A DNA stretch of 49,558 nt, from the NCBI GenBank assembly GCA_050249295.1, contig JBFWQT010000003.1:1-49558 (forward strand), in the 5' to 3' direction. Position numbers and translations under genes: made by a program. This document shows positions 1 through 34,729 of the stretch, one piece after another. A model generated the notes under the pieces. The model made no database searches, had not been told where the DNA came from, and worked only from the letters and a program-made list of their open reading frames with translations. The first letter of the stretch is position 1; each line of letters begins with the position of its first letter. Source of the DNA: Planctomycetota bacterium. Lineage in GTDB: Bacteria > Planctomycetota > UBA8742 > SKZP01.

Positions 1-88
1 GCTTGCCGAGGGTGGCCTGCACGCCACCGGGGTCGATTTCCTTGTACTGGCGGCGCAGGTCGGCCAGCACGTCCTGTACGGTTCTCAT
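1..88 (-). CDS. N-terminus (partial, runs off left edge) of a probable rhodanese-domain MoeB/MoeZ-type E1-like sulfur-carrier adenylyltransferase
   Basis: Not in the ORF track. Manual translation from ATG at 88 gives MRTVQDVLADLRRQYKEIDPGGVQATLGK..., resembling the N-terminal helix of rhodanese-MoeB fusions. Lies directly downstream of MoaD/ThiS and JAMM genes. Only 29 codons visible. Confidence 0.55.
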   Translation of the reverse strand, partial: MRTVQDVLADLRRQYKEIDPGGVQATLGK

Positions 89-128
89 GATGTTGTGGCC
101 GGGTTGGTGGGTGGATGGTGGCATGAAG

Positions 129-215
129 AACAAGAGCCGCGACCGTCAGGGAGCGGATGTGATGGCGGGTGGTTCACATCCGTACATCCGCTCCCTCACG
201 GTCGCGGCTCTTGTT
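129..215. repeat. REP-like palindrome (32-bp arms, 1 mismatch, 23-nt spacer)
   Basis: aacaagagccgcgaccgtcagggagcggatgt (129-160) is the reverse complement of acatccgctccctcacggtcgcggctcttgtt (184-215) except at one position. Intergenic. Confidence 0.85.
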
Positions 216-224
216 GATTCGACG

Positions 225-533
225 TCAGTTCGTTGCGCCGCCGGCGATCGCCGGCACGATGCTCAGCACGTCACCATTCTTGACCGGCGTGGTCAGGCCG
301 TCGAGCGTGCGGATGTCGTCCTGGTTGAGGTACACGTTGACGAATCGGCGCAGTTCGCCGCTGTCGCTGTAGAGCCGTTCGCGCAGGCCGCTGGCGCGCT
401 CGCCGAGGTTGGTGAGCACGTCGCCGACGGTGTTGCCGGGGAGTTGCACCTCGGCCTGGCCCTGCGTCAGCGGGCGCAGCGGCGTGGGGATGCGGACGGT
501 GGTGACGTTCGGGTTGGTGGTGGTCGTCGTCAT
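225..533 (-). CDS. MoaD/ThiS/CysO-family ubiquitin-like sulfur carrier with C-terminal extension (…IAGG-ATN)
   Basis: Motifs VRIPTPLR, TVGDVL, RRFVNVYLNQDDIRTLDGLTT, GDVLSIVPAIAGG. ATG at 533 preceded by AGGAG, so the ORF-track start at 623 is too long. Confidence 0.93.
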   Translation of the reverse strand: MTTTTTNPNVTTVRIPTPLRPLTQGQAEVQLPGNTVGDVLTNLGERASGLRERLYSDSGELRRFVNVYLNQDDIRTLDGLTTPVKNGDVLSIVPAIAGGATN

Positions 534-618
534 GTTGCGGGTCTCCTGATCAGTGTGATCGTGATCTGCGAATGCGAGGTGAAAATCGTTCTTTTCGTGC
601 GTCTTCTGCACCTTCAAG

Positions 619-640
619 CCCACGGGCGGCTGCCCGTGGG
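619..640. repeat. Short REP-like hairpin CCCACGGGC-ggct-GCCCGTGGG
   Basis: Perfect 9-bp inverted repeat with 4-nt loop, intergenic between the JAMM and MoaD-like genes. Confidence 0.65.
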
Positions 641-666
641 TCGCGCACCGGGGTGACCTGTGGTCG

Positions 667-1122
667 TCACTCGGTCACGCGTTCGGGCGCGATACATCGC
701 TCCTCCGCGAACGCGGCGTTGCGCAGCACCCACGAGTTCCACGTTCCGGCCCGGCCCTTCGCGATCTGCAGGATCACGTACGACCAGCTCTCGGCGTCCA
801 CGTTGCCCCACACCTCCTCGGCCCGCGCGCGATCGGTCTCGCTGGGCCGCGACGGGTGGTCGGGGTGGGTGTGGTAGACGCCGATCACCTCGAGGCCCTG
901 CGCCGCGGCGTCGGTTTCAATCTGCAGGTATTGCTGCGGGTCGAGAATGTAGCGGTCGTGTGCGCGCTCGGTGTTGAGGTTGGCGGTCGCGCGGATCTGC
1001 TCGACGATGCGCGCGCCGTCGGCGGTGGTGCGCCCGACGAGGAGGCCGCAGACCTCATGCGGGTAGCCGGCCTCGCCGTGGCGTTGCATCTGCGCGATCT
1101 GGTCGTCGGTGATGATCAGCAT
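667..1122 (-). CDS. M67 family (JAMM/Mov34/MPN+) metallopeptidase, Mec/QbsD-like
   Basis: YPHEVCG glutamate and complete JAMM motif HTH-x7-S-x2-D (HTHPDHPSRPSETD). Start set at MLIITDD (1122); the upstream GQGQ extension is translated microsatellite. Confidence 0.93.
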   Translation of the reverse strand: MLIITDDQIAQMQRHGEAGYPHEVCGLLVGRTTADGARIVEQIRATANLNTERAHDRYILDPQQYLQIETDAAAQGLEVIGVYHTHPDHPSRPSETDRARAEEVWGNVDAESWSYVILQIAKGRAGTWNSWVLRNAAFAEERCIAPERVTE

Positions 1123-1134
1123 GGTGAACCTGTT

Positions 1135-1287
1135 CCCTTGCCCTTGCCCAATCCCTTGCCCTTGCCCTTGCCCTTGCCCTTCTTCCCGCTTGCCGTCGCC
1201 CGCCCCGCCCCGCCCGCTCCCGGCGAACACCGGGATGCGGGCAAGGGCAAGGGCAAGGGCAAGGGCAAGGGCAAGGGCAAGGAAGGG
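1135..1287. repeat. Inverted hexamer microsatellite pair (CCCTTG)n … (GGGCAA)7
   Basis: 1135-1182: eight hexamer units, six of them perfect CCCTTG. 1239-1280: seven perfect GGGCAA. The arms are mutually complementary. Confidence 0.9.
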
Positions 1288-1311
1288 CTCTCTCGTGTCG
1301 GCGCGCCCTGG

Positions 1312-1962
1312 TCAGCTCAGCTTCTTCTTGTTGAGGTAGAAGTCGAACTTCTCGTCCCAGTTCCCGGCCAGGCGGTTCTCGACATCGGCAGCCGTCTTCG
1401 GCGGCGGCACCACCACGTTCTCGCCGGGCTTCCAGTTCACGGGGCAGGCCACGCTGTGCTTGTCGGCGGTCTGCAGCGCATCCACCAGCCGCACCACCTC
1501 GTCCACGTTGCGGCCCACGTTCAGCGGGTAGTAGACGATCGCGCGCACGGTCTTCTTCGGGTCAATCACGAACAGCGCGCGAACGGTCACGGTGGCGCTC
1601 TCGCCGGGGTGCAGCATGCCGTAGAGGCGGGCCACGCTGCCGGGCGTGTCGGCGATCATCGGGTAGTTGATCTGCACATCGAGGATCTGCTTGAGGTTCT
1701 GCCGCCAGGCGAGGTGGCTGTGGATGCTGTCGATGCTCAGGCCGATCAGCTTCGTGTTGCGCTGGCCGAACTCGCTCTCGCGCTTCGCGAACTCGGTCAG
1801 CTCGGTGGAGCACACCGGCGTGAAGTCGGCGGGGTGCGAGAACAGCACCACCCACTTGTCGCCGGCCCACTCGTGGAAGCGCAATTCGCCGACCGTGGTC
1901 GGCGCCGTGAAGTCCGGCGCCTGGTCGCCGATGCGCGGCAGGGTCAATGCGGTATCGGTCAT
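1312..1962 (-). CDS. Peroxiredoxin, Prx6/TDXH-like subfamily
   Basis: FSHPADFTPVCSTE active site, YYPLNVGRNVDEVVR, C-terminal ACPVNWKPGE; AAGGAG RBS upstream. Confidence 0.95.
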   Translation of the reverse strand: MTDTALTLPRIGDQAPDFTAPTTVGELRFHEWAGDKWVVLFSHPADFTPVCSTELTEFAKRESEFGQRNTKLIGLSIDSIHSHLAWRQNLKQILDVQINYPMIADTPGSVARLYGMLHPGESATVTVRALFVIDPKKTVRAIVYYPLNVGRNVDEVVRLVDALQTADKHSVACPVNWKPGENVVVPPPKTAADVENRLAGNWDEKFDFYLNKKKLS

Positions 1963-2482: not shown

Positions 2483-3844
2483 ATGCCACATCTGAAGCCC
2501 GCCCGCCCGATCCTCGCCTCCCTGCTGCTGGTCGGCGCGCTGCACATTCCGACCGCCACCGTCGTGGCCCAGCCGGGCCCGGCGACTGACCCGCAGCCCC
2601 CGGCCACCGATCCGCAGCCCCCGGCCACCGACCCCGCCGCCGCGTACGCCGCGAAGCTCGACGCCGCCGCCGAGAAGGGGCGCGACTACCTGCTCTCGCT
2701 CTATGGCAAGGATCCGCGCCAGGGCGGATGGGGCCCCGACATGCCGTTCGTCGGTTACAGCGGCCTCGCGCTCAACGGTCTGCTGCGCGGCCGCAAGCCG
2801 GTGTCGGTGAGCGACGAGCGCGTGAAGAAGACGCTCGACAAGCTGATCAGCCAGCAGCAGTTCGACGGCGCGTGGGTCTCGCCGCAGCGTGGCGAGGCGG
2901 TCTACGAGACGTCGGTGATTCTCCGCGCGCTGGTGGCCGCGGCGCAGGCCGACAAGGAGTTTGCCGCGCGCGAGGACGTGCTGTCCGCGATCCGCAAGGG
3001 CCGCGACTACCTGCTGCTCGCGCAGGTGGATGAGCACCCCGAGGTCGACAAGGACGGCAAGGCGATCGAGGGCAAGGTGGATTCGCCCGACGCCGAGGGT
3101 GGCGCGAACTACGGCGGCGTGGGCTACGGTCGCGGCACGCAAGGCACCACGCCGTCGGCCAACATGAGCAGCACCGCGATGGCGATGGAGGCGGTGGACT
3201 CGACGACGGCCGTGATCGGCGAGGACGACAAGCTGAAGGAAGCGCGCAAGAAGCTGCAGAACTTCCTGCGTCACTGCCACAACCTGGCCGAATACAACGG
3301 CAAGCCCTACAACACCGAAGCGACCGACACGCCGCAGGGCAAGGTCGTGCCCGGCAACGACGGCGGCGCCGTGTACGCGCCCGGCCAGTCGAACGCCGGC
3401 ACCACCGAGGGCGAAGGCGGCGTGCGCGTGCTGCGCAGCTACGGCTCGGTGACGTACGCGCTGCTGCAGCTCTATCACATCTCGGGCATCGTCGATCGCA
3501 ACGACCTGCGCATCCAGAAGGCGATGGAGTGGATCACGCGCTCCGAGAACTTCGTCTTCACGTATCACCCCGGCCTGAACCAGGACGACCGCAACAGCCA
3601 GTTTGCCGGCCACTACTACTACCTCTACACCGCGGCCCACACGCTGAGCATGCTGGCCGGCAAGGCCACGCTCGAGGACAGCCGCGGCGAGGAACACAAC
3701 TGGAGCAAGTCGATCGGCGACGTGCTGCTCGGCCTGCAGCAGGCCAACGGCGCGTGGAGCAACCAGAAGAACTCCGCGTACTGGGAGAACGCGCCGATCA
3801 TCGCCACGTCGTACGCCCTGGTCGCGCTCGGCTACCTGCGCTGA
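2483..3844 (+). CDS. Secreted prenyltransferase/squalene-cyclase-repeat (alpha/alpha-toroid) protein
   Basis: Signal peptide MPHLKPARPILASLLLVGAL…AQ, ATDPQPP repeats, QW-like motifs (LISQQQFDGAW, LLGLQQANGAW), DGGAVYAPG, SYGSVTYA, HYYYLY. Confidence 0.8.
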   Translation: MPHLKPARPILASLLLVGALHIPTATVVAQPGPATDPQPPATDPQPPATDPAAAYAAKLDAAAEKGRDYLLSLYGKDPRQGGWGPDMPFVGYSGLALNGLLRGRKPVSVSDERVKKTLDKLISQQQFDGAWVSPQRGEAVYETSVILRALVAAAQADKEFAAREDVLSAIRKGRDYLLLAQVDEHPEVDKDGKAIEGKVDSPDAEGGANYGGVGYGRGTQGTTPSANMSSTAMAMEAVDSTTAVIGEDDKLKEARKKLQNFLRHCHNLAEYNGKPYNTEATDTPQGKVVPGNDGGAVYAPGQSNAGTTEGEGGVRVLRSYGSVTYALLQLYHISGIVDRNDLRIQKAMEWITRSENFVFTYHPGLNQDDRNSQFAGHYYYLYTAAHTLSMLAGKATLEDSRGEEHNWSKSIGDVLLGLQQANGAWSNQKNSAYWENAPIIATSYALVALGYLR

Positions 3845-3915
3845 CCCGGCAGCGGGCGGCGGTGACACACCTGCCGCTGCTTGCTACACATGGGCGTTCC
3901 CAGCCCGGGCGCCCC

Positions 3916-4932
3916 ATGATTTCCGACACCGAAACCGGTACTCCGGCTGCCGCGGCCGTGCCCGCTGCCGTTCCGTCACGCCCGCCGCTCCTCGAGTTGC
4001 AGGGCGTGACGAAGCGGTACGGCCGCAAGGCAACCGCGCTGAGCGACATCAGCCTGACGCTGCATGGCGGCGGGATCGGTCTGCTCGGCCCCAACGGTGC
4101 CGGCAAGTCCACGCTGATCAAGTCGCTGCTCGGTCTCGTGCGACTCACCAGTGGCAGCGCCAGCGTGCTCGGCTACGACGTGCGCAAACGGTCGCGCCGG
4201 ATCCGCCGCAGCGTGGGCTACATGCCCGAAGACGACGACGCGATACCGGGCATGACCGGCATCGAGGCGGTGTCGTTCTCGGCCGAGCTCTGTGGCATCT
4301 CGCGCCACGCGGCGTTCCTGCGCGCGCACGAGTCGCTCGACTTCTGCGGCATCGGCGACGAGCGCTATCGGGTCCTGCGCACGCTCGCGCCCGGCACACG
4401 CCAGCGCTTCCACCTCGCCCGCGCGCTCGTGCACGGGCCACGGCTGGTGTTCCTCGACGAGCCGACCGCCGGCCTTGACCCGGCCGGTCGCGAGTGGATG
4501 CTCGGCCTGATCCGCGACCTGTGGGAGAAGCACGGCGTCAACGTGATCTTCTCGACGCACATCCTCAACGACATCGAGGTCGCGTGCGACCAGGTGGTGA
4601 TCATCAAGCTCGGCACGCTCGTCGCGCAGGGCCGGATCGACCAGCTGCGCACCACCGACACCTCGCGCCTGCGCGTGCAGTACCGCGGCGACGAGCGCGA
4701 CTTCGTGCACGAGCTGCGCCAGCAGGGCGTCGGCGACGTGCGCATCCTCGGACCGGGCCAGCTGATGATCGACGCCGAGCAGGGCGGCGTGCCTCCGGCC
4801 GTGCTCCGCGCCGCAGTGGCCGCCAACGTGCGCCTGCGGCACATCGCGCCGAACGCGACGCAGCTCGAGGACATCTTCCTCAATGCCGTGGCGGCGACGC
4901 GACGGTACCGGCGGGAGACGCTGCATGGATGA
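3916..4932 (+). CDS. ABC-2 type transporter ATP-binding protein (degenerate signature)
   Basis: Walker A GPNGAGKS, Walker B LVFLDEP, H-loop FSTH; signature reads LAPGTRQR. Confidence 0.93.
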   Translation: MISDTETGTPAAAAVPAAVPSRPPLLELQGVTKRYGRKATALSDISLTLHGGGIGLLGPNGAGKSTLIKSLLGLVRLTSGSASVLGYDVRKRSRRIRRSVGYMPEDDDAIPGMTGIEAVSFSAELCGISRHAAFLRAHESLDFCGIGDERYRVLRTLAPGTRQRFHLARALVHGPRLVFLDEPTAGLDPAGREWMLGLIRDLWEKHGVNVIFSTHILNDIEVACDQVVIIKLGTLVAQGRIDQLRTTDTSRLRVQYRGDERDFVHELRQQGVGDVRILGPGQLMIDAEQGGVPPAVLRAAVAANVRLRHIAPNATQLEDIFLNAVAATRRYRRETLHG

Positions 4933-6283
4933 CCGCACGGCGCTCAACTACTCGACGCGCTTCCTGCAGCCGGCGATCACCAACCGGCCGCTGCGCAAGA
5001 CGCATCGCGCCGTCGACCCGACGACGCTGCTGCCGGCGCGCTGGACGCTGTGGCTCGCCATCTCGCGCATGGGCGTGCGGCTGGCGTTCCGCAGCCGGTT
5101 GCTGCGCCGCTTCGTGTTCGTGGCGTGGGCGCCGATGCTCTACTTCCTGTTCGCGTTCTTCACGATCGGCTGGATCACCGACCACAACAACGCGCCGCAC
5201 GTCGAACGGGCGATGGAGGCCTACGGCGAGGCCGACTTCTTCGCGCAGACCATGCTCGAACTCGGCTTCACCACGCTCGGCGTGGACGAGAGCAAATCGA
5301 GGCGGCAGGAGTGGAGCTACGCGATGCAGAGCCTGCGCGACCAGGGCTACCGGCTGGATCCCGCGCTGTTCAACGTGGACAAGGCTCGCGCCGAGGGCAT
5401 CGACGTGGCCGCGTTGTGGGCTGACGCTCGCGAACGAATCGTCGAGAAGTCGGTGGCGATGATGACCGAGGAAGGCTGGGACCCGGCCGAGGCGCTGGAG
5501 TACGTGCGCGAGAACTGGGCCGACAGCGAGCCGCCGGAGCCGAACCCGCTGCTCGAGCGGCTGCGCACCGATCCGGAGTCGCTGCGCAACCTCGGCTGGT
5601 CGCTCGGCTTCTCGTTCTTCTTCATGTTCACACAGACCGCGATGCTGCTGTTCGTCGTCAGCATCGTCGGCCCGCCGTTGATCGCGCGCGACAGCGAACG
5701 CACGTGGCAGCTCTACCTCTCGCGGCCGATCACGGCGCTGGACTACGTGGCGGGCAAGGCCGGCGTGATCTGCTTCACGATTGCGCTGACCACGCTGGTG
5801 CCCGCGCTGGTGCTCTACGCCGCGACGATCCTGTTCTCGCCGAGCGCGCACGCGATGATCGACACACTGGCGGTGGTGCCGCGGCTGGTGCTCGCCTCGG
5901 CGGTTATTGCGCTGCCGGTCAGTGCGCTGATCCTCTGCATCTCGTCGCGCGCCGGCGACGAACGCTACGCGATGTTCACGTGGATCGGCCTGGTGCTGGT
6001 CGGCGAGGCCGCGTACCACCTGCTGTCGTTCGTGCCCGCGTTTGCCGGCAAAACGTGGATCCACCTGCTCTCGCTGCGGCAGTGTCTCGTGCGCTCGGCC
6101 GTGTACGCGCTGGGCACCGACCAGCAGTTTGCCGCGCTCGGCAGCTCGAAGGAGATCGACGGCTACCGCCAGTGGCTGACCGGCGGCCTCGATCCGACGC
6201 CGTTCGTCGTCATGCTCGCGATCATCACGGTGCTGTGCTTCCTGGACACGGTGCGCAACGTGCGCAGACTGGCGGCACGATGA
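4925..6283 (+). CDS. ABC-2 type transporter permease with extracytoplasmic insert
   Basis: Multiple TM helices, GPPLIARD…LYLSRPITALDYVAGK motif; overlaps neighbouring ATPase genes. Confidence 0.85.
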   Translation: MDDRTALNYSTRFLQPAITNRPLRKTHRAVDPTTLLPARWTLWLAISRMGVRLAFRSRLLRRFVFVAWAPMLYFLFAFFTIGWITDHNNAPHVERAMEAYGEADFFAQTMLELGFTTLGVDESKSRRQEWSYAMQSLRDQGYRLDPALFNVDKARAEGIDVAALWADARERIVEKSVAMMTEEGWDPAEALEYVRENWADSEPPEPNPLLERLRTDPESLRNLGWSLGFSFFFMFTQTAMLLFVVSIVGPPLIARDSERTWQLYLSRPITALDYVAGKAGVICFTIALTTLVPALVLYAATILFSPSAHAMIDTLAVVPRLVLASAVIALPVSALILCISSRAGDERYAMFTWIGLVLVGEAAYHLLSFVPAFAGKTWIHLLSLRQCLVRSAVYALGTDQQFAALGSSKEIDGYRQWLTGGLDPTPFVVMLAIITVLCFLDTVRNVRRLAAR

Positions 6284-7314: not shown

Positions 7315-8322
7315 ATGATTGCGATTGTCCGCCTCCAGATCCTGCAGATGATTCGCGGCCGCAGCCGACGGCCGTTGGTGGCGTTCGCGATCGCGCCGGT
7401 GCTGATCACCTTGTTGTGGGTGATCGGCACCAGCTACGGCGGGGGCGAGGATCCGGCCGATGCGACCGCTGTCGAGGCTGACGGGTTGACCGACGAGGTA
7501 CCGGGCCCGACCGACGTGGAGATCCCGGCGGACAACGCTGACGGCGGCGAGCCGCAGACGCAGACGCAACCGGGTGACGGCGACAGCGACATCGGCGACA
7601 CCGACGAGCAGCCGCAGACGATGCCGACGGAGTCGGACGAAGGTGAGGACCTGCCGTCGCCGTTTGCGCCGGACGCGGATGCGGGCTACACGATCGACGC
7701 GGAACTGAAGAGCGCGCTGTTCCTGTTCACGCTGGTAACGCAGGTGTTCTGCATCCTGCTGTCGCTGATGTACGGCGGCACGATCATCGGCACGACGTCG
7801 GACCGTCACGCGCTGGCGTACCTGTTTGTGCGGCCGATCGCGCGCTGGAAGATTGTCGCTGGTCGCTGGGCCGGCATTGTCGCGGTGATCACGGCCGTGC
7901 TCTGGGCCAGCCTGGCCGGCTGCTGGGCGCTGCTCGGCACGCCGGGTGGGTCGCAATTGTTGCTCGCGCTGTTGCTCTCCACGTTGCTGTCGGCGATGGC
8001 GTTCGTCGGGGTGTTCGCCGTGTTCGGCGTGATGCTCGCGCGCGCAGCTGTTCCGATGGCGCTGGTGTACGGGCTGTTCTACGAGGTGCTGCTGTCGTGG
8101 ATGCCGGCGCTGCTGCGCAAGTACTCGGTGTCGTTCTACACGCGCTCGGTGGCGTTCAACCTCGGCGGTGTGCCGGTCCCGCAGCAGGCCTCCGAGCTGG
8201 CTGGTGCCGAGCTGGCGCTGGGCCTGGTGATGCCGGTGCTGATTGCGCTGGCCTGCGTGTTCATCGCCGGTCGCGCCGCCCGCAGCATCCAGCTCGAAGC
8301 CGCCGACGCGCCCGAGATCTGA
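7315..8322 (+). CDS. ABC-2 type transporter permease with long acidic loop
   Basis: About six TM helices, YLFVRPIARWKIVAGRW motif, D/E/P/T-rich loop after TM1. Confidence 0.85.
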   Translation: MIAIVRLQILQMIRGRSRRPLVAFAIAPVLITLLWVIGTSYGGGEDPADATAVEADGLTDEVPGPTDVEIPADNADGGEPQTQTQPGDGDSDIGDTDEQPQTMPTESDEGEDLPSPFAPDADAGYTIDAELKSALFLFTLVTQVFCILLSLMYGGTIIGTTSDRHALAYLFVRPIARWKIVAGRWAGIVAVITAVLWASLAGCWALLGTPGGSQLLLALLLSTLLSAMAFVGVFAVFGVMLARAAVPMALVYGLFYEVLLSWMPALLRKYSVSFYTRSVAFNLGGVPVPQQASELAGAELALGLVMPVLIALACVFIAGRAARSIQLEAADAPEI

Positions 8323-8387
8323 GCGCTCGGATCGTGGGCGTCGTGGCAGAATCACCACGCACACCACGTCGCCGGCCACGTCTTCAC

Positions 8388-9617
8388 ATGCCCGTGCACC
8401 GTCGCTCGCTTGCTGCGCTGATTGCCATCGTCTGTCTGCTGGCCGCACTTTCGTCGTGCAGCTCGGGCAACGTGGCGCCCACCTCGGCGCCGATCGACCC
8501 GTCGCAGCTCGCCGACGCACGCATCGCCGGCCGCGCGTCCGCGGCGTTCGCGCTCGACCTGCTCCGCAAGCTCGACGACGACGGCAACGTGGTGCTCTCG
8601 CCGTGGAGCATCACGCAGGCGCTGACCATGACCGCCGCGGGGGCGCGTGGCGAGACGCAACGCGAGATGCTCGCGGCGCTGGGCGTCGGCGACTCGCTGC
8701 CGGTGGATCGTCTGCAGACCGCCGTGGCGGCCGTGTCGGACCATTCCGCGCCACTCACGGCGGCCAACGCGCTGTTCCCGGACGCACGCGCCACCATCGT
8801 CCCGGCCTTCGCCTCGGAGATGCAACGCACGCATCACGCGACAATCACGCCGCTCGACTTCTCCCCGGCCAACGCAGCGGCCGCGGCCGCGCAGATCAAC
8901 AACTGGGCCAGCCAGCACACGCACGGCATGGTGCGCGACATCGTGTCGGCCGGCGACGTGACCAACAACCGCCTCGTGATCGGCAACGCCGTGTCGTTCC
9001 ACGGCGAGTGGAAGACCGTGTTCGATCACACCGCGCCGGGCGCGTTCCACCTGGCGGATGGCTCGTCGGTGCCGGTCACGATGATGTCGCACACACACGT
9101 CGACACCACGTTCAGCCGTGCGAGAGGCCGCGATCTGATCGCCGTGTCGCTGCCGTACCAGAACAGCGGGTGCGAGATGTGCCTGATCGTGCCGACGACG
9201 GGCTCGCTGGCCGACCTCGAGGCAGGCCTGACCGGGGGGCAGCTGGACAACCTGTTCGACGCGCTCGACGTCGGGCACGACGACAAGTGCCAGGTGGTCA
9301 TGCCACGCTTCAAGTTCGAGTGGCGCGACGACCTGAACGACGCGCTGAAGGCGCTCGGCATGCGTCGCGCGTTCGTGCCGGGCGAGGCCGACCTCACCGG
9401 CATCATCGCCGACGGCTCGCTGTTCATCAGCCTCGTCCGCCATGGTGCGTGCATCGAGGTGGACGAGAAGGGCACCCGCGCCGCCGCGGTCACCACGGTG
9501 CACATGAACAAGAGCATGCCGCCGCCGCCGCTGATGTTCGATCGGCCGTTCCTGTTCCTGATCCGCCATGTCGAGTCCGGCGCCATCCTGTTCATCGGGC
9601 GGTTCGTCAAGCCGTGA
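8388..9617 (+). CDS. Serpin (serine protease inhibitor), predicted lipoprotein
   Basis: Lipobox LSSC, NVVLSPWSI, INNWASQHTHG, NAVSFHGEW, hinge EVDEKGTRAAAVT, FDRPFLFLIR…ILFIGR. Confidence 0.93.
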   Translation: MPVHRRSLAALIAIVCLLAALSSCSSGNVAPTSAPIDPSQLADARIAGRASAAFALDLLRKLDDDGNVVLSPWSITQALTMTAAGARGETQREMLAALGVGDSLPVDRLQTAVAAVSDHSAPLTAANALFPDARATIVPAFASEMQRTHHATITPLDFSPANAAAAAAQINNWASQHTHGMVRDIVSAGDVTNNRLVIGNAVSFHGEWKTVFDHTAPGAFHLADGSSVPVTMMSHTHVDTTFSRARGRDLIAVSLPYQNSGCEMCLIVPTTGSLADLEAGLTGGQLDNLFDALDVGHDDKCQVVMPRFKFEWRDDLNDALKALGMRRAFVPGEADLTGIIADGSLFISLVRHGACIEVDEKGTRAAAVTTVHMNKSMPPPPLMFDRPFLFLIRHVESGAILFIGRFVKP

Positions 9618-9666
9618 CGGGTGTGATCACTGCTGATTCTGCTCGCCCGTCACAAACCCGCGGGAT

Positions 9667-10452
9667 ATGCTTCTGACGGTCAAGGCGGCGGAATGCGTGC
9701 AGCACGCAGGAGCGTCAGTGCCGCGGGGCGAGAGCCACATCCAGGTAGCCGGGGCTACGGAGCAGGGTCGGCGCGGGAACAACCAGGATGTGTTCTTCGC
9801 AGACGGTGCGGCCGGACTGTTCCTGATCGCGGACGGCGTGGGCAGCTCGCCGTACGGCGATGTCGCGGCGCAACTGGCGGCCGAGGCGATCCGCGAGACG
9901 GTGTCGGCCAGCAGCGGCCGACAGGCGGTGGGCGACCTGCTGTGCGCCGCGGTGACGCACGCGCACGACCACATCCACGAACAGAAGAAGGTGCGCGGCA
10001 TCGACAAGATGAGTTGCGCGCTCGTGGTGGCGCTGCTGCGCGACCGCACGCTGACCGTGGCCAACGCCGGCGATTCGCGCGCCTACCTGCGCTGCGCCAA
10101 CGGCGACCTGCGCCAGCTGAGCTTCGACCATAGCGTGGCGAACATGATGCTCAGCAAGGGGTACATCACGGCCGACATGGTCCCGAAGCATCACCTCCGC
10201 CACACGCTGATCACGTCGGTTGGCGGCAGCCAGAAGCTGGTGGTCGCCGTCGAGGAGACGACCGTTGCGTCGGGCGACCGCATCCTGCTGTGCAGCGATG
10301 GTGTGAGCGATGCGCTCGACAGCGCGACGATCTCGGCCGTGCTTGGCGGCGATGCAAGCGCACAGGTGCTGGCCGAACGCCTGGTGGAAGCGGCCGTCGA
10401 GGCCTCGGGAAAGGACAACGCGACGGCGATCGTGGTCTGCCCCGGCTGGTGA
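9667..10452 (+). CDS. PP2C/PPM-family Ser/Thr protein phosphatase
   Basis: GRRGNNQD, IADGVG, AGDSRAY, LSFDHS, LLCSDG, KDNAT motifs. Confidence 0.92.
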   Translation: MLLTVKAAECVQHAGASVPRGESHIQVAGATEQGRRGNNQDVFFADGAAGLFLIADGVGSSPYGDVAAQLAAEAIRETVSASSGRQAVGDLLCAAVTHAHDHIHEQKKVRGIDKMSCALVVALLRDRTLTVANAGDSRAYLRCANGDLRQLSFDHSVANMMLSKGYITADMVPKHHLRHTLITSVGGSQKLVVAVEETTVASGDRILLCSDGVSDALDSATISAVLGGDASAQVLAERLVEAAVEASGKDNATAIVVCPGW

Positions 10453-16783: not shown

Positions 16784-17826
16784 GCGAGCGAGACGAACAG
16801 CTCGCGCCACTGCGGCAGGATCGCCGACCAGTCCTGCGTGGCCACGAAGGCCGACGCGTTGTCGATCAGCCGGCTGGCGAGTGCGGCGTCGTCGGCCAGT
16901 CGTGCCACCGCAGCCGCAAACGCGGCCGCGTCGTCCGGCGGGGCGAGCAGCGCGCGTTGCTCGTGCGGCGCGATATGGGGCACACCGCCGACGTCGGTGC
17001 TGACGACCGGCAGCCGACTGGACATCGCTTCGAGGACGCTCACCGGCGTGTTGTCCACCGACGTGGTGTTGATGAACACGCCGTGGTGTGCCGCCAGCGT
17101 GGCGGGCACCTCGTCGCGCGGGATCGCATCGTGCAGCGTCATCCGCTGGGTCACGCAGAGTTTGCTGGCGACATCGAGCACCCGCTGGCGCGAGCCGTCG
17201 CCCTTGTCGGGCCCGATCATCGTCAGTCGTGCCGTCGGGTGCGTGGCCGATAGCGCATGCAACACGCGGACGGCCATGTCCGGCTGGTAGATCGCATGGA
17301 ACGCGCGCAGCCAGAGCATGTGCGGTGCCGGCGGGAGCGGTCGGTCCGGCGCGGCGTAGCGGGCCACATCCAGCGGGTTGCCGATCACGCGGATGTCGGC
17401 ACGCAGATGCTGCAGCTGGTCGCGCAGCCAGGACGACGGGGAGACCACGACATCGGCGCGTTCAAGCGTGCGCTTGAGTCGGGCCGGCTGGCGTTGCGCT
17501 AGTTCCGGGAGGTTGCCGCCGTGCAGTACCAGCACAATCGGACAGCGGCGGTGCGCGAGCCGGGAGCAGAGCTCGGCGAAGCGGAACGCCGCACTGCTGA
17601 ACACGTCGATGCACACCGCACCCAGCGTGCCCCGTCTCCACCACACGCTGCCAGCCATGTGCAGCAGGCGGGCTGGCGGCCAACGCAAGGGCGAGACCGT
17701 GCGCACGGCCAGACCACCGGTTGAAAGCCGCGCTGCGATCTCGGCACTGATCTGCGGACGGCCGGCGCCGTGCAGGTAGTTGCCGACGAAGAGCACGCAT
17801 GGTGTCGACGCGTGCGGGCCGCTCAT
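16738..17826 (-). CDS. Glycosyltransferase family 4
   Basis: VLHGGNL, LRAFHAIYQP, INTTSVDNTPVSVLEAMSSRLPVVSTDVGGVP. Confidence 0.92.
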   Translation of the reverse strand: MSGPHASTPCVLFVGNYLHGAGRPQISAEIAARLSTGGLAVRTVSPLRWPPARLLHMAGSVWWRRGTLGAVCIDVFSSAAFRFAELCSRLAHRRCPIVLVLHGGNLPELAQRQPARLKRTLERADVVVSPSSWLRDQLQHLRADIRVIGNPLDVARYAAPDRPLPPAPHMLWLRAFHAIYQPDMAVRVLHALSATHPTARLTMIGPDKGDGSRQRVLDVASKLCVTQRMTLHDAIPRDEVPATLAAHHGVFINTTSVDNTPVSVLEAMSSRLPVVSTDVGGVPHIAPHEQRALLAPPDDAAAFAAAVARLADDAALASRLIDNASAFVATQDWSAILPQWRELFVSLAQSRSCSANTSAMNV

Positions 17827-21382: not shown

Positions 21383-23443
21383 TCATTCGGGCGGTACGGT
21401 GCCGCCCAGCTTGCGCACTTCGCCGGCCAGCGCGCGCCGTGTGTCGCGGTCCGGGCACAGCCGCCAGGCGCGGATCATGCTTTCGACCGCCCGGTCCGGG
21501 CTGCCAGTGTTGCTCTGCGCGCCCGCAAGGTTGGCCCAGGCCTGCCAGAGGTTGGGGTTGGCCTCGGTCGCACGGGTCGCGTCCTGCAGCGCACCGTGGA
21601 AGTCGCGCGCCTTGAACCGCAGGCTCGCGCGGTTGACCCACGCCTCTGCATGATCCGGCTTGAGCCGCACCACCGACGAGTAGTCGGCGATCGCCATCTC
21701 GTTGTCGCCGTTGTCCATGTACGCGTTGCCACGCTGGAACAGCGCCGACCAGTCGCCGCCATGATCGGCGAGGTACTCGTTGAGCGTTGCCAATTGCTGA
21801 TCGCGCCGGCCGAGAATTCGCAGGCAGTTGGCCTTGTTCAGCCAGGCAGCGCGCAGGCCGGGGTCCATGCGGATCGCGCGGTCGTACCAGCGCAGCGCCT
21901 CGTCATGCTGACCGAGTCCCATCGTGTAGAGCAGACCGATGCAATGCAGATCCTCGGCGGTGTGCAACGTCCGGCCGAGTTGCTCGCTGCTTTCGACCAC
22001 CGCTGTGATCTCGTGGATGTACTCCTGGATGCGCTCGCCGCCGAGCGAGTCCACGAACTGCTGATCCGACTCGCCTCGCCGGCGCGCATCGGCCCACGCC
22101 TTCTGGAACTCGTCGCGCGCCCGCTGTCCGGCCACCTGCACCTTGCCACCCAGGCGCTCGGCCAGCTCGGCGAGCTGACCCTCGCGGGCGAGGTGCTCGT
22201 ACTCGGCGATCCTGGCCTGCTGTTCGGCCAGCTCGCGCTGACGCTCCGACTCCTCACGCTGCCGGTCGGATTCGGTGCGCTGGCGTTCCGACTCGGCGGT
22301 GGCCAGGTGCGCACTCTCCATCGCGCGCAGTGCGAACACGAGCACGAGCGCCACCATCAGGACGCAGATGGTGGCCACGCCGCTGCCCATTGCCCAGCCG
22401 GGATTGCGGCGCGCCCACTTGGCGACGCGCATCGGCAGGCCGTCTTTCCAGGCGATGCCGGAACGCGTGCCGAGGAACGCGTCGATGTCCTGCGCCATCT
22501 GCTCGACATGCTGGTAGCGGTCAGCCGGGTCGGGGGCCATCGCCATGCGCACGATCGCGTCGAGCTCGCGCGGGATGTTCAGGCCGGGCGCGCGACGGCG
22601 CGGTGGCAGTGCGCGGCTACGACGCGCGGCCTCGATCACCTCGTCGCTCGTGCGCGCGGCCCACGGTGGCGACAGCGTCAGCACCTCGTACAGCGTGGCT
22701 CCCAGCGCGAAGATGTCGGTGCGCTCGTCGAGCAACTCGACCTCGCCGAGTGCCTGCTCGGGCGACATGTAGAGCGGCGTGCCGATCACATCGCCGTGGC
22801 GCGTGAGGTTGCTGCCGCGGCTGGCACGCACCGTGGTCGACACCGGCGACGGCGGGCGGTCGGGCCGGTTGATCGGCCGTGCCAGACCCCAGTCCATCAC
22901 CAGTACCTCGCCGAACGGCCCGACCATCACGTTGTCCGGCTTGAGATCGCGATGGATCACGCCGCGGCTGTGCGCGTAGGCGATCGCATCGCAGACCTTG
23001 CGGATCGTGGGCAGGCGGCCGTCCTCGATCAGGTCGCCGAGTGTGCTGCGCCGCCGCTGCTTCTTTGCGCGCGATATGATCTCGCCGAGCGTCTCGCCGC
23101 TGACGAGCTTCATCGTCATGTACGGCCGGGCGCGATCGTCCTCGCCGAGCTCGTGCACCGGCACGATGTTCGGATGCTCGAGCTGTCCGGCAATCTGCGC
23201 CTCTTCGACGAAGCTCTCGACGGCCGCTCGATCGGCCGTGTCGCGCAACAGCTTCACGGCCGTCATGCGGCGCAGCGACGCGTCATGCGCCGCGTACACC
23301 ACGCCGAACGCGCCGGTGCCGAGCCGGTGCTGCAACTCGTAGCGACGGAACCCGACCGGCACGCGCGGGATCGAACGCTCACCACTCGCTCGCGGGGAGC
23401 GGGGCGAATCGTCGGCGTTACGGTAGGTCGGCGGAGGTTGCAT
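21383..23443 (-). CDS. Hanks-type Ser/Thr kinase, TM, coiled coil and TPR repeats
   Basis: LGTGAFG, AVKLL, HRDLKPDN, DWG, GTPLYMSPEQ, DIFALG; TM; C-terminal TPRs (AWLNKANCL, ALFQRGNAY, AWVNRASL). Confidence 0.95.
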   Translation of the reverse strand: MQPPPTYRNADDSPRSPRASGERSIPRVPVGFRRYELQHRLGTGAFGVVYAAHDASLRRMTAVKLLRDTADRAAVESFVEEAQIAGQLEHPNIVPVHELGEDDRARPYMTMKLVSGETLGEIISRAKKQRRRSTLGDLIEDGRLPTIRKVCDAIAYAHSRGVIHRDLKPDNVMVGPFGEVLVMDWGLARPINRPDRPPSPVSTTVRASRGSNLTRHGDVIGTPLYMSPEQALGEVELLDERTDIFALGATLYEVLTLSPPWAARTSDEVIEAARRSRALPPRRRAPGLNIPRELDAIVRMAMAPDPADRYQHVEQMAQDIDAFLGTRSGIAWKDGLPMRVAKWARRNPGWAMGSGVATICVLMVALVLVFALRAMESAHLATAESERQRTESDRQREESERQRELAEQQARIAEYEHLAREGQLAELAERLGGKVQVAGQRARDEFQKAWADARRRGESDQQFVDSLGGERIQEYIHEITAVVESSEQLGRTLHTAEDLHCIGLLYTMGLGQHDEALRWYDRAIRMDPGLRAAWLNKANCLRILGRRDQQLATLNEYLADHGGDWSALFQRGNAYMDNGDNEMAIADYSSVVRLKPDHAEAWVNRASLRFKARDFHGALQDATRATEANPNLWQAWANLAGAQSNTGSPDRAVESMIRAWRLCPDRDTRRALAGEVRKLGGTVPPE

Positions 23444-24230: not shown

Positions 24231-24854
24231 TCAGCCGGCGCTGCCGAGTGCGCCGCGCTCACGGAGATGATCGAGTACCCGCGCCACGCAGGCATCCAGG
24301 GGCATGGCACCGGTGTTGACCCGCACGTCGGGCTGCTCCGGCGCCTCGTACGGCGCCGAGGCCGACACGCCGGTGAAATCGGCGATCTCGCCGGCGCGGG
24401 CCTTCGCATACAGGCCCTTGGGGTCGCGCTGCTCGCAGACCGCGAGCGCCGCGTCGACGTGCACCTCCACGAACGACGCCGCACCCACGCGCTCGCGCAC
24501 AGACGCGCGATCGGACCGGTAGGGCGAGATGAACGCGACCAGCACCAGCAGACCGGCGTCGGCGAACAGCGCCGCCACCTCGCCGATGCGACGGATGTTC
24601 TCGACACGATCGGTGGGTGAGAAGCCGAGGTCGGCGTTCAGGCCGTGGCGGATGTTGTCGCCGTCGAGCACGTACGCGAGGCGGCCGTCGTGAGTCAGCC
24701 GCTCTTCGAGCGCGCGGGCGAGCGTGGACTTGCCGGACCCGGACAGGCCCGTAAGCCACACGACCGTGCCGCGCTGGCCGAGCAATTGCTCGCGATGGTC
24801 GCGGCGGACCGTGCCGTCATGCCAGGTGAGGTTGGAATCGCGGGCAGCGGTCAC
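24231..24854 (-). CDS. cysC: Adenylyl-sulfate (APS) kinase
   Basis: [61 protein letters not shown]. Confidence 0.96.
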
Positions 24855-24905: not shown

Positions 24906-26102
24906 TCAGCGCGGAATCGCCACCGTGGCCTCGCCGACCAGTTCGCCCTCGTCGCGCGGCCAGAGCATGTAGCGCAACTCGATGTGGGCGGAGCTCGCGT
25001 TGCCCCACGTGGTGGCGTCGGCGAAAGCGAACGTGAACTCCTGGCTGGCGCCATGCGGGATCTGCAGGCCATCGGTGCCGGCCCAACGACTGGGCTTCTG
25101 CATCGTGTAGTCGCGGCGCGCGATCGCGGTGCCCGTAGCGTCGTGCAGTGTGACCACCAGGCGAATGCGGCGAATGCGGTAGCCGGTGGGCAGCCGATGG
25201 CCGGTGCCGCGATTCTCCAGCGTGACGACCACGCTCTGCGCCGGCGCGTCGGTCTGCGCGCTCAGCCCGATCGCGGCACGCACGAACGCGGCATCGTGAC
25301 CGCCGGGCATCACGTGTGCCCGATGTCGACCGGCGCCACCCGCGGGTCCGCCGTCGGCCCACGGCATGTGACAGTCCGCGCAGGTCTGGTCGGTCAGCGC
25401 GTCGGCCGCCCACTCGTCGAACGAGTGCTTTGTGCCGGGCAGATACGACTGATGGCAGTTGGCGCACGCGGCCGAGGTGGCGAGTCGCGGCTGCACGAGC
25501 GGCGCGCACCCGGCCGTGTCACGCGAACTGCTGCGCCCGGCGCCGACGATCCGCCCGTTGCGCACGTGGCACGCCGCGCAATCGACACCATCGGATTCGC
25601 GCCCGTCACGCGGCCACGGAAGGGCCACCGCCGTCCGGGCGTCGGTCGTCTCGTCGGGCAACTCGAGGATCGGCGACGGCCGGTGACACGCCACGCATTC
25701 GGGCGCGGCCGGGTCGGATCGGATGAAGATGCTCAGCGTGCGCAGCGCGTCGTCGGTGCGCGACGTGCGATGCTGCGAGGCGAGCCACTCGGTGTGGATG
25801 GCGGCGTGACACGGCGCGCAGGTCGTCGGGTCATCGAGTGCGATGCCGCTTGCGTGAACAGGACGCGTCTGATTGGTCCGGCCGCCGCCACCCGCGGGCG
25901 GCGTCACCGGCGTGGCGCCGGGTGTGGTGAGCGACGAGATCGCGAGCACCGCCACCAGGCCGACCAGCAATGCGCCGGACACGAACGCGATGATCATCCG
26001 CCGCGAGACGAACGCGTCGTCGCCCGGCTCGAACGCGCCGGCCGCGCCGGCCGGGACGTGGGGTGCAGGGTGGTGTGGGTGGGTTCCGTCGGTGAGCGTC
26101 AC
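24906..26102 (-). CDS. Membrane-anchored pentaheme c-type cytochrome (c554/c552-like)
   Basis: Five CxxCH motifs (CAPCH, CVACH, CAACH, CANCH, CADCH), N-terminal TM, GHRLPTG motif; GTG start overlaps the upstream stop. Confidence 0.88.
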   Translation of the reverse strand: MTLTDGTHPHHPAPHVPAGAAGAFEPGDDAFVSRRMIIAFVSGALLVGLVAVLAISSLTTPGATPVTPPAGGGGRTNQTRPVHASGIALDDPTTCAPCHAAIHTEWLASQHRTSRTDDALRTLSIFIRSDPAAPECVACHRPSPILELPDETTDARTAVALPWPRDGRESDGVDCAACHVRNGRIVGAGRSSSRDTAGCAPLVQPRLATSAACANCHQSYLPGTKHSFDEWAADALTDQTCADCHMPWADGGPAGGAGRHRAHVMPGGHDAAFVRAAIGLSAQTDAPAQSVVVTLENRGTGHRLPTGYRIRRIRLVVTLHDATGTAIARRDYTMQKPSRWAGTDGLQIPHGASQEFTFAFADATTWGNASSAHIELRYMLWPRDEGELVGEATVAIPR

Positions 26103-26656
26103 TTGACGTGCTTCAGCGCCTGCTTGAACGCGGGCGTCCCGGCGCGGCGCAGCCACTGGTAGATCACCATCTCCCGCGTATCGAACGGGATGCCGTAGCG
26201 CTGCATGCGTTCCACGCCGAAGCGACGGCCGTCCTCGTTGCGCGCCGAGATTGCGTCGGGCACGACATGTACATCGTACCCGGCTGCGGCCGCCTCGAGC
26301 GCGGTCTGGCAGACACAGATGTGGCTTTCGATGCCGACCAGCACCGGCGTGTGCCGGTTGGTGGCGGCGAGGGCATGGCGGAACGTCTCGTCGCCCCATG
26401 CCGAGAACGACATCTTGTCGAGCGGACGGTACGCGTCACCGAGCGCCTCGACGAGCGGCGGAATGGTCGTGCCAAGCCCGGATGGGTACTGCTCGGTGAC
26501 AAGGATCGGCACCGCAAGGTCGCGCGCCACAGCGATGAGCCGCCGCTGCGCGTCGATGACCGCTTCGTGATCGATGATCAACGGAACCAGCGACGGCTGC
26601 ATGTCGATCAGCACCAGCACCGAATCGGAAACGTCAATCAACGGCGATGCAGCCAT
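26099..26656 (-). CDS. Isochorismatase-family (YcaC-like) cysteine hydrolase
   Basis: LVLIDMQ, TEQYPSGLGTT, KMSFS, GIESHICVCQT. Confidence 0.93.
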   Translation of the reverse strand: MAASPLIDVSDSVLVLIDMQPSLVPLIIDHEAVIDAQRRLIAVARDLAVPILVTEQYPSGLGTTIPPLVEALGDAYRPLDKMSFSAWGDETFRHALAATNRHTPVLVGIESHICVCQTALEAAAAGYDVHVVPDAISARNEDGRRFGVERMQRYGIPFDTREMVIYQWLRRAGTPAFKQALKHVK

Positions 26657-26672
26657 GGAATCGTCAACTCAC

Positions 26673-28358
26673 TCAGCCGCCCACGCGGCTCACGCCATCG
26701 GTGATCGACCCGGCGGCGATGCAGTTGCTGTTGAGCAACAGCGGCTGCAGCAGGCCGGACACGCCACCATGCATGCGGGCCAGCGCGATCTTCGCGCCAC
26801 GATTGGAAAGGGTCTCGGTGGCGCGCAGCAGGCCGCCCAGCGCGGGGTTGGCCACCGACCGGCACTCGCCGAAGTCGAGCACAAGGTGGAACGACGTGCC
26901 CGGTTCGTTGATCTGCAGCGCGTCTTCGATCAGCTTCCACTTGGCCGCGTCGAGCGCGCCCGTGATGCTGACCACTTCCACCGGCAGACTGCGTGCCTCG
27001 GCGACGACGGCCTGGCGCAACGTGCTCGGCGGCGTCGGCACCTGCACGCGGTTCAGCACCTCGAGCGTGGGCATGCGGCCCGACGATTCGTTCGCATCCA
27101 GCAGCGCAAGGGCCATCGCGTTGGCGGCCTCGGCCATCGACTGATAGCGGTCGGCCGGCCGCTTGGCGCACATCTTCGCGAGCACCTTGTCGATGCCGCG
27201 CACCATGCCCGGCACCTTGTCCATCAGCGACGGGAACGGCTCGGTGACATGCTGGTGCATGATCATGAGGTGCGTGCCAGTCTTGAACGGCGGCTCGCCG
27301 GCCATCAGCCAATAGAGCGACGCGCCCAGTCCGTAGACGTCGGTGGCCGGTGTGATCGCTTCGTCCTGCACCTGCTCGGGCGCCATGAACAGCGGCGTGC
27401 CGAGGATCGCGCCGGGCGAGGTCAGACGAACCGACGCGTCAAGCAGACGTGCGAGGCCGAAGTCGGTGACCTTGATGCCGCGCTGCCCGGAGACGGTCAT
27501 GATGTTGGCGGGCTTCACGTCGCGGTGGACGATGCCGGCGACGTGGGCCGCCTGCAGGGCGTCCGCCACCTGGATCGCGGTTTCGAGCGCGTCCTCCACC
27601 GGCATCGGTCCGTCGTTGACCACCACCTCGCGCAGCGACCGGCCGTCAACGAACTCCATCACCAGGAACGGCCGGCCCTCGTGCATGCCGTTGTCGTAGA
27701 TGCTGACGATGCCGCGGTGGTCGAGACGCGCCGCGGCGCGGGCCTCGCGCGCAAAGCGTTCGGTGTGCGAGGGCGCACTGCTGTGCAGCACCTTGATGGC
27801 GACGAGGCGGTCGAGCGAGTTGTCGAGCGCGCGATACACACACCCGGTCGCGCCGCGCCCGACTTCGCCGAGGATCTGCCACTGGCCGATCATGCGCGGC
27901 ATGTGGCGGTTCAGCGGATCGTTGCCGAGGCCGCGACGCTCGTCGCCGGGCTTCAGCGACTTCATCTCGGTGGACGACGAGCTGCCGCTGTTCGGGTTGT
28001 TGGGCCGTGCGACGATCACCTGACGATTGCCGGCCATCGTCAGACGGCTGTCTTCGTCATCCGTCAGGCTGCGCAGGTTGTGCCCGTGGCAGACCGGGCA
28101 TTCGAGGTCGCGCTCGCCAACAAGCGTGTTGCCCGCTGACGTTGTCTGGCAGGTGTCACAGATATACCGGTGTACGGCGAATTCGTTGCGCAGCGTCACC
28201 ACGCCCTGATCATCGAGGAAGCGCGCGCCCAGCGCCCACTCCTCGAAGTTCGAGTCGGGCGCAACAGCCTCGTGACTCGCCACCATCAGCCGCGCGGTGG
28301 CGTCGTTGACGAGTCCGGTCTGGATTGCGATCTCGCCGAGAGCGGTGGAGCGCAGCAA
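26673..28358 (-). CDS. Hanks-type Ser/Thr kinase with N-terminal zinc ribbon and C-terminal STAS domain
   Basis: CDTC…CPVC; GRGATG, VAIK, HRDVKPAN, DFG, GTPLFMAPEQ; C-terminal VVSITGALD…LVLDFGEC…ALGGLL. TTG start with GGGAG RBS. Confidence 0.9.
   Translation of the reverse strand: MLRSTALGEIAIQTGLVNDATARLMVASHEAVAPDSNFEEWALGARFLDDQGVVTLRNEFAVHRYICDTCQTTSAGNTLVGERDLECPVCHGHNLRSLTDDEDSRLTMAGNRQVIVARPNNPNSGSSSSTEMKSLKPGDERRGLGNDPLNRHMPRMIGQWQILGEVGRGATGCVYRALDNSLDRLVAIKVLHSSAPSHTERFAREARAAARLDHRGIVSIYDNGMHEGRPFLVMEFVDGRSLREVVVNDGPMPVEDALETAIQVADALQAAHVAGIVHRDVKPANIMTVSGQRGIKVTDFGLARLLDASVRLTSPGAILGTPLFMAPEQVQDEAITPATDVYGLGASLYWLMAGEPPFKTGTHLMIMHQHVTEPFPSLMDKVPGMVRGIDKVLAKMCAKRPADRYQSMAEAANAMALALLDANESSGRMPTLEVLNRVQVPTPPSTLRQAVVAEARSLPVEVVSITGALDAAKWKLIEDALQINEPGTSFHLVLDFGECRSVANPALGGLLRATETLSNRGAKIALARMHGGVSGLLQPLLLNSNCIAAGSITDGVSRVGG

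Positions 28359-31033: not shown

Positions 31034-34729
<3,696 letters not shown>

Follow-up and report, generated by a model that had tools for sequence, protein, structure and literature searches.

A peroxiredoxin gene linked in three phyla to a CysO-type module, probably for cysteine synthesis

Why should a peroxiredoxin gene stand at the head of a row of genes for a ubiquitin-like sulfur carrier and its partners? The question is raised by the first 49.6 kb of contig C3 (JBFWQT010000003.1; 49,558 nucleotides, hereafter the window) of a Planctomycetota genome (GCA_050249295.1; 7.2 Mb in 768 contigs, 78.5% complete), in which a peroxiredoxin gene (prx) is followed by genes for a JAMM metalloprotease, a CysO/MoaD-type carrier and the beginning of a rhodanese-ThiF E1 enzyme. 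An earlier note on this DNA had seen here a possible urmylation-like module, with the peroxiredoxin (Prx) as the dedicated substrate or partner of the thiocarboxylated carrier. The answer that we hold to be probable is a different one: the module makes cysteine, and Prx is a co-expressed peroxide defence for this oxidation-sensitive, stress-linked pathway. The genome under study is labelled G000 in what follows; other G and L numbers label genomes and loci of its relatives.

All four genes run head to tail along the minus strand. Their order, as well as the identities of the first three products, had been read in the earlier note from the letters alone; the open reading frame (ORF) map confirms the former, and Pfam and NCBIfam searches bear out the latter. 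From prx to the contig end, the features are as follows.

1312-1962, minus strand: prx, peroxiredoxin of the Prx6-like clade, 216 residues (Pfam, NCBIfam, structures)
1123-1311, minus strand: prx-JAMM intergenic region, filled by a long (CCCTTG)n/(CAAGGG)n hairpin
667-1122, minus strand: JAMM/MPN+ metalloprotease, Mec-type, 151 residues (Prok-JAB)
534-666, minus strand: JAMM-carrier intergenic region, with a dispersed palindrome of about 36 nt at about 606-645
225-533, minus strand: CysO/MoaD-type ubiquitin-like sulfur carrier, 102 residues (ThiS family)
89-224, minus strand: carrier-E1 intergenic region, with a palindromic element of about 87 nt, resembling repetitive extragenic palindromes, at 128-215
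1-88, minus strand: rhodanese-ThiF (MoeZ-like) E1, first 29 codons with the ATG at 88, cut by the contig end

The identities of the first three genes are established, and the catalytic residues of their products are intact. The carrier belongs to the ThiS family (Pfam, E 2.1e-15) and has M. tuberculosis CysO as its best solved relative (3dwg chain C, E 3.7e-21); on the NCBIfam model for SAMP1 it reaches 62.9 bits, just over the cut-off of 60, a point in favour of urmylation. Its C-terminus reads AIAGG-ATN-stop, Gly98-Gly99 being followed by Ala-Thr-Asn, and each of the two glycines is kept in at least 90% of the 36 sequences aligned. The carriers of relatives end in GG-stop, GGS, GGL or GGTR, or are fused in frame to the E1. 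Because carrier ends bear tails or E1 fusions, the JAMM protease would be needed as a maturase besides its part in cysteine release.

The protease itself (Prok-JAB, E 1.2e-22; best solved relative 2kcq) keeps the E...HxH...S..D motif; an alignment of 33 sequences shows no variation at E23, H84, H86, S94 and D97. Its start was set at the ATG at 1122, in agreement with the homologue alignment; a longer ORF that begins with GTG and extends to 1230 crosses the repeat hairpin. On the NCBIfam desampylase model it scores 80.7 bits, below the cut-off of 130, and this counts against its being an eraser of protein modification. The protease is probably a maturase that trims the ATN tail of the carrier as well as a hydrolase of the carrier-cysteine adduct.

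No Pfam family scores on the 29-residue E1 stub. It aligns with the N-terminal helix that precedes the rhodanese domain in proteins of about 395 residues, encoded at the same position in relatives. Rhodanese-ThiF proteins of G130, G031 and G016 match it at their N-termini; in the carrier-E1 fusions of G292, G169, G082 and G234 the matching part is the linker. Pfam finds Rhodanese and then ThiF in the full-length relatives, which bears out the guess of a rhodanese-E1 made from the stub. The remainder of the E1 was not found in the assembly. Its sole ThiF gene, on C243, is complete and a gene of its own, the product being 26-30% identical to the module E1 of relatives; unitigs of the DNA runs X1 and X2 reach 590 and 777 nt past window position 1. 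G000 also encodes MoaE (C89) and a second, weak MoaD-like protein (C77). The carrier may have a role in molybdenum cofactor synthesis; CysO is its closest solved relative, and cysM is its usual neighbour.

The linkage to cysM was established in relatives. Among 301 genomes of Planctomycetota, 70 have an orthologue of the JAMM gene. We examined 1.5 kb of flank on each side of the 29 best non-self Planctomycetota loci, and cysM lies within that distance of the orthologous JAMM gene in 20 of them. Carrier and E1 genes occupy the flank on that side in seven more, and there cysM follows where the sequence was read further (L064, L066, L165). It is also in the cluster of every prx-linked relative examined. 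In G000 itself a cysM orthologue is found on C43 (PALP), its product being 55% identical to a JAMM-adjacent one. A scan of metagenomes with the JAMM sequence gave one distant locus (33% identity), which was left unused.

The clusters differ in composition and in the fusions that they contain. G218 has a row of an Rrf2 regulator, cysM, JAMM and carrier; in G057, genes for sulfite reductase, PAPS reductase, CobA and TauE are followed by cysM, JAMM and a carrier-ThiF-rhodanese fusion. G278, with the carrier closest to that of G000 (64% identity), encodes JAMM, carrier, rhodanese and ThiF in one ORF, next to cysM:

G278, C490 (L165), 2724-4796: ORF of 690 residues with Prok-JAB, ThiS, Rhodanese and ThiF in a single frame; cysM at 4838-5731

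Read from its sequence, this ORF would be a protease-carrier-E1 polyprotein that has to cleave itself. In class-level relatives (family f5) the JAMM gene adjoins cysM, and the carrier (GG-stop) adjoins homoserine dehydrogenase; in L055 (G011) the carrier-homoserine dehydrogenase pair lies at 8395-10038, with the JAMM-cysM pair about 0.87 Mb off on the same chromosome. One carrier may serve two or more sulfur acceptors. Judged by its genes, the triad of the window belongs, as one of the common variants, to the known thiocarboxylate pathway of cysteine synthesis (Mec/CysO/MoeZ/CysM). As cysM accounts for the triad in relatives, no protein-modification role is required for it; a CysM that explains the triad had been named beforehand in the earlier note as counting against urmylation.

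The closest known counterpart is the Mec+/CysO/CysM/MoeZ(R) system of M. tuberculosis, which like the present one combines a Gly-Gly carrier of the ThiS/MoaD fold, a JAMM protease, and an E1 with ThiF and rhodanese domains (here a probable one, from the stub), and whose clustering with cysM is matched in the relatives of G000. The two differ in several respects. Here the carrier has a three-residue tail after its Gly-Gly, so the JAMM protease would have to double as a maturase; the operon includes the gene for the E1; prx heads or faces the operon; and cysM is not visible in the window. The rhodanese domain of MoeZ is C-terminal, whereas in the E1 of the relatives it lies N-terminal to ThiF. 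The link of the M. tuberculosis system to oxidative stress is taken from PMC8280819, cited here, as are the other papers below, for an excerpt: there the mec-cysO-cysM cluster is described as induced by peroxide via AosR and SigH and as shielding the bacterium from oxidative stress, and thiocarboxylates as more oxidation-resistant than thiols.

Other JAMM-carrier pairs extend the comparison. QbsD/QbsE of Pseudomonas and HcyD/HcyS of Wolinella are pairs of a JAMM maturase and a sulfur-carrier precursor. DRJAMM of Deinococcus and these two pairs differ from the present module in their acceptor, which is molybdopterin, thioquinolobactin and homocysteine, respectively. To our knowledge none of the three systems has been described with a linked peroxiredoxin. 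DRJAMM cleaves MoaD-MoaE and so likewise exposes the Gly-Gly of an extended or fused carrier, and according to the excerpt of PMC8832034, H2O2 resistance requires this protease, a bacterial JAMM acting on a MoaD fusion. By analogy, a Prx encoded at the operon head or sharing its promoter region would fit the stress logic of the M. tuberculosis and DRJAMM systems, and no new chemistry would be needed.

The prx product matches the Pfam families AhpC-TSA (E 2.2e-34) and 1-cysPrx_C (E 1.2e-14) and the NCBIfam family PRK13189 (268 bits, cut-off 211). Among solved structures it comes closest to 5ovq (E 6e-68), followed by 7kuu, 6p0w and 1prx, all of Prx6 type; its best families and structures (PRK13189, 5ovq, 1prx) thus place it with Prx6 and not with the Ahp1/Prx5 type, and the caveat of the earlier note that Ahp1 belongs to another subfamily is borne out. 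P44, T48, C51 and R128 are invariant across 83 orthologues and make up the PxxxTxxC motif and the conserved Arg, the peroxidatic Cys51 lying in PADFTPVCSTE. A second cysteine, Cys173, is found in VACPVNW (codon 1444-1446), where the closest structures have Thr (VATPADW), and its motif is retained in most orthologues, a count biased by one of the six search patterns, which included VACPVNW. We take this site to be the resolving-cysteine position (VCP motif) of typical 2-Cys peroxiredoxins. With a second cysteine there, the label "1-Cys" is unsafe, and the protein may belong outside the 1-Cys group.

How often prx lies next to the module was counted in two search tables for the same 301 Planctomycetota genomes, cross-read by eye (JAMM at E <= 1e-10, Prx at E <= 1e-60). 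The two genes lie less than 1 kb apart in 5 of the 29 genomes that hold both. They are on the same strand in G000, and in G136 a single strand carries prx, cysM, JAMM, carrier and E1 in this order. In G292, G234 and G082, prx is divergent from JAMM, which is followed by the carrier-E1 fusion and cysM, with 65-116 bp between the starts. In G057 prx and JAMM are 8 kb apart within one sulfur-assimilation cluster.

The same arrangement recurs outside the phylum. In a sample of 80 Prx loci from species genomes of all phyla, 54 of them with at least 2 kb on both sides, the full module stands beside prx in five: G292, G082, L098 and L100 of Acidobacteriota (L100 being Acidobacteria bacterium Mor1), and L120 of Bacteroidia. 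Mor1 has prx followed by JAMM, carrier (GG-TR), Rhd-ThiF, cysM, sulfite reductase, CobA and PAPS reductase; from prx through cysM the ORFs abut or overlap, with no more than about 45 nt between prx and JAMM. ORF starts were taken at the first in-frame start codon, which makes the overlaps upper bounds. L120 reads prx, cysM, JAMM, carrier and ThiF-Rhd, with gaps of at most 3 nt at the first two junctions. Among 201 genomes of Acidobacteriota, 14 have Prx (E <= 1e-70), and in three of these the module lies directly downstream of prx (G315, which is Mor1, G322 and G477, the last with cysM first); the 11 unlinked ones include the unpublished genome G458. In total, 10 genomes of three phyla, with three gene orders, have prx linked to the module, as the earlier note would expect of related genomes.

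Mapped on a maximum-likelihood tree of 84 Prx sequences, linkage to the module requires 6 changes of state, and at least 3 are forced by branches with good support; among 500 label shuffles, just 1 was as clustered as the observed state. The Prx of G000 sits on a long branch, its own position in the tree being unsure. Of 36 Planctomycetota with the close Prx clade (E <= 1e-90), 27 have the JAMM gene too, as do 43 of the 265 others, relatedness being uncorrected in this comparison. Since prx is found beside the module in other genomes as well, the pairing goes beyond chance; it is real but patchy. A peroxiredoxin built into a CysO-type operon across three phyla was not found in the literature searched, which was covered at the level of abstracts and cited passages.

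Taken step by step, our explanation runs as follows. The rhodanese-ThiF E1 would adenylate the Gly-Gly end of the carrier on the way to the thiocarboxylate, and a CysM-type pyridoxal phosphate enzyme, encoded on C43 and/or past the contig edge, would couple the carrier sulfur to activated serine. The JAMM protease would first remove the Ala-Thr-Asn tail, exposing Gly-Gly, and later free cysteine from the carrier-cysteine adduct. Prx would act as an ordinary thiol peroxidase, its gene heading the operon or being divergent from it, and joint expression would guard the persulfide and thiocarboxylate intermediates and supply cysteine for thiol repair in oxidative stress. What we infer in this scheme is what CysM acts on, what the JAMM protease does and why prx is linked.

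Whether the genes of G000 are transcribed together depends on the gaps between them. The RNA of the prx-JAMM gap folds with -136.8 kcal/mol (z = -7.45 against shuffles); its hexamer hairpin tracts lie at 1153-1176 and 1242-1277, and the 3' arm stops about 12 nt before the JAMM ATG. A locus-specific, riboswitch-like role of this hairpin is ruled out, for (CCCTTG)n/(CAAGGG)n tracts of at least 3 copies number 169 in the assembly, many of them at contig ends and often paired as long hairpins. The hexamer microsatellite is probably a main cause of the fragmentation into 768 contigs. On C43, one such tract comes right after cysM (17718-17771). The palindromes of the other two gaps are likewise dispersed: blastn-short gives 171 hits in the assembly for the JAMM-carrier one, its own copy counted, and 252 for the carrier-E1 one, both arms and its own copy counted. 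In contigs of the runs X1 and X2 the depth spikes at the palindromes, reaching about 500-600 against about 10 at the carrier-E1 element. A scan of positions 1-2400 found no terminator-like or sigma-70-like site.

A number of observations weigh against a co-expressed peroxide defence for cysteine synthesis. All three intergenic gaps of G000 hold strong repeat hairpins, so that co-transcription of prx and the module is unproven there; that they are co-transcribed would follow by analogy with the relatives only. Compared by eye, the upstream regions of prx from eight loci showed no shared operator. The contig ends in the E1, which is seen as 29 residues only, and the window holds no visible cysM, the gene after the E1 being beyond the contig end. 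In 24 of the 29 Planctomycetota genomes with both genes, prx and JAMM are kept apart. Among these is G278, whose carrier is the closest and whose Prx is 73% identical, with prx and module on different contigs. Finally, co-regulation alone leaves the proximity of prx to rhodanese genes in other contexts, described next, unexplained.

That proximity bears on a second answer, rather unlikely in our view, in which Prx and the thiocarboxylate system are coupled chemically: the oxidised cysteine of Prx would take sulfur either from the carrier, as a forerunner of the Urm1-Ahp1 reaction with the JAMM protease as eraser, or from sulfide, and hand the persulfide to the E1 rhodanese domain. In the sulfide version, which taken alone we regard as unlikely, a peroxide-driven reaction lets the sulfenic acid of Prx capture sulfide as a Cys-persulfide, and Prx would be the missing donor to the rhodanese domain of a MoeZ-type enzyme. 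The Prx clade does stand beside rhodanese genes, and well above chance. Over the 80 loci, rhodanese hits are about ten times denser close to prx, with 22 per 100 kb in the range 0-500 nt and 0-3.6 per 100 kb at 3-7 kb, the hits being phylogenetically clustered and not mutually independent. MBL-rhodanese (metallo-beta-lactamase-rhodanese) fusions are convergent to prx in seven loci (five of Planctomycetota, one metagenome-assembled genome and one found with a looser E-value), and in Saprospiraceae and relatives the neighbours of prx include tandem rhodaneses, an MBL-rhodanese fusion and DUF1641 with an SQR-like gene. The loci concerned are listed here.

L083, 7620-8993; L126, 5416-6825 and 8003-9974; L145, 190-968: neighbourhoods of Prx orthologues with MBL/rhodanese (persulfide-dioxygenase-like) genes, tandem rhodaneses or DUF1641 with an SQR-like gene
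L095, L096, L099, L107, L109, L116, L124, L131, L137, L140, L144, L146: further loci with such sulfur-gene neighbours of Prx
L104, 6983-8826; L115, 7001-8788: two Cytophagales loci with a ThiF-rhodanese (MoeZ-like) gene 42-46 nt after prx, and with neither carrier nor JAMM nearby

In the whole genome of L104 (G317) no JAMM gene was detected with our JAMM query. These neighbourhoods suggest that the Prx clade is tied to sulfide or persulfide metabolism. Heme catalases are inhibited by sulfide, and the same neighbourhoods also fit a Prx that merely stands in for them. Published work lends the sulfide version further plausibility. The sulfur source of MoeZ is termed unknown in the excerpt of PMC8280819, and the sulfenic acid of the one-cysteine Prx MtAhpE is described as reacting with HS- to give a persulfide (PMC9538486). 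In the SqrR regulon of Rhodobacter capsulatus, as excerpted, a sulfide-induced candidate Prx, rcc00528, is co-regulated with SQR, a sulfurtransferase and a rhodanese, which matches the Prx-rhodanese neighbourhoods seen here; its authors propose a part for it in transsulfuration and suggest persulfidation of its peroxidatic cysteine (PMC9995734). That system is a regulon for sulfide detoxification, in contrast to an operon for cysteine synthesis as here. Against the capture of sulfide by Prx stand its purely inferential nature, its cost of one H2O2 per cysteine, the phylogenetic clustering of the rhodanese neighbours, and the fact that most module-bearing genomes have no prx linkage.

Absence of any functional link, prx standing beside the module by chance or as a hitch-hiker on a transferred fragment, we judge improbable. 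It would agree with the patchiness of the linkage, with its absence from the closest relative, G278, with the dispersed repeats that separate the genes in G000, and with the place of the G082 Prx among acidobacterial ones (support 95/90), which suggests block transfer. It is opposed by the three gene orders in three phyla, with at least three changes forced by the tree, by the overlapping or abutting ORFs of Mor1 and the Bacteroidia locus, and by the uneven occurrence of JAMM genes with and without the close Prx clade given above.

There remains the urmylation-like coupling of the earlier note, in which the thiocarboxylated carrier would attack the oxidised peroxidatic cysteine, leaving a Prx persulfide and a lysine-linked carrier that the JAMM protease removes. 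The yeast Urm1/Uba4/Ahp1 system likewise has a Gly-Gly carrier, a rhodanese-domain E1 for thiocarboxylation and an associated peroxiredoxin; unlike it, the present system has a Prx6-like Prx and CysM as biosynthetic acceptor, and any conjugation in it is hypothetical. According to the excerpt of PMC9574740, Urm1-COSH reacts with sulfenylated Ahp1 via an acyl disulfide and with neither E2 nor E3, the chemistry requiring just a thiocarboxylate and a sulfenylated cysteine, and an archaeal Urm1 conjugates Ahp1 in yeast (PMC12645042). In the excerpt of a 2026 review, bacterial ThiS/MoaD proteins serve solely as sulfur carriers (PMC12954526). A complex prediction for Prx with the mature carrier (residues 10-99) scored 0.00 in both runs, had no controls and counts neither way. 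The recurrence of Prx, Gly-Gly carrier, rhodanese-E1 and JAMM in three phyla shows the linkage behind the earlier proposal to be conserved enough to matter; the proposal itself is unlikely, with cysM in the same clusters fully explaining carrier, E1 and JAMM, with a Prx of the wrong subfamily and a JAMM below the desampylase cut-off, and with prx also pairing with E1 or rhodanese genes that lack a nearby carrier or JAMM. A dedicated-substrate role in particular is disfavoured because the linkage is a minority state and the closest relative is unlinked.

The remaining genes of the window (8097-9617; 21383-23443; 24231-24854; 24906-26399; 26673-28358; 31034-34729; 36203-39760) encode a serpin, an APS kinase, a multihaem cytochrome-like protein and four Ser/Thr kinases, one of the latter with a large WD40 propeller; none of them adjoins the prx/JAMM module.

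The pathway to which prx is linked is known; its incorporation into the operon of that pathway in three phyla is the new part. The tight operons of Mor1 and of the Bacteroidia locus offer concrete material on which the readings can be tested. Should the coupling prove chemical, it would touch on the origin of Urm1-type peroxiredoxin modification and on the sulfur loading of MoeZ-type E1 enzymes. At the least, the finding would mean that peroxide defence is wired to oxidation-resistant cysteine synthesis well beyond the actinomycetes.

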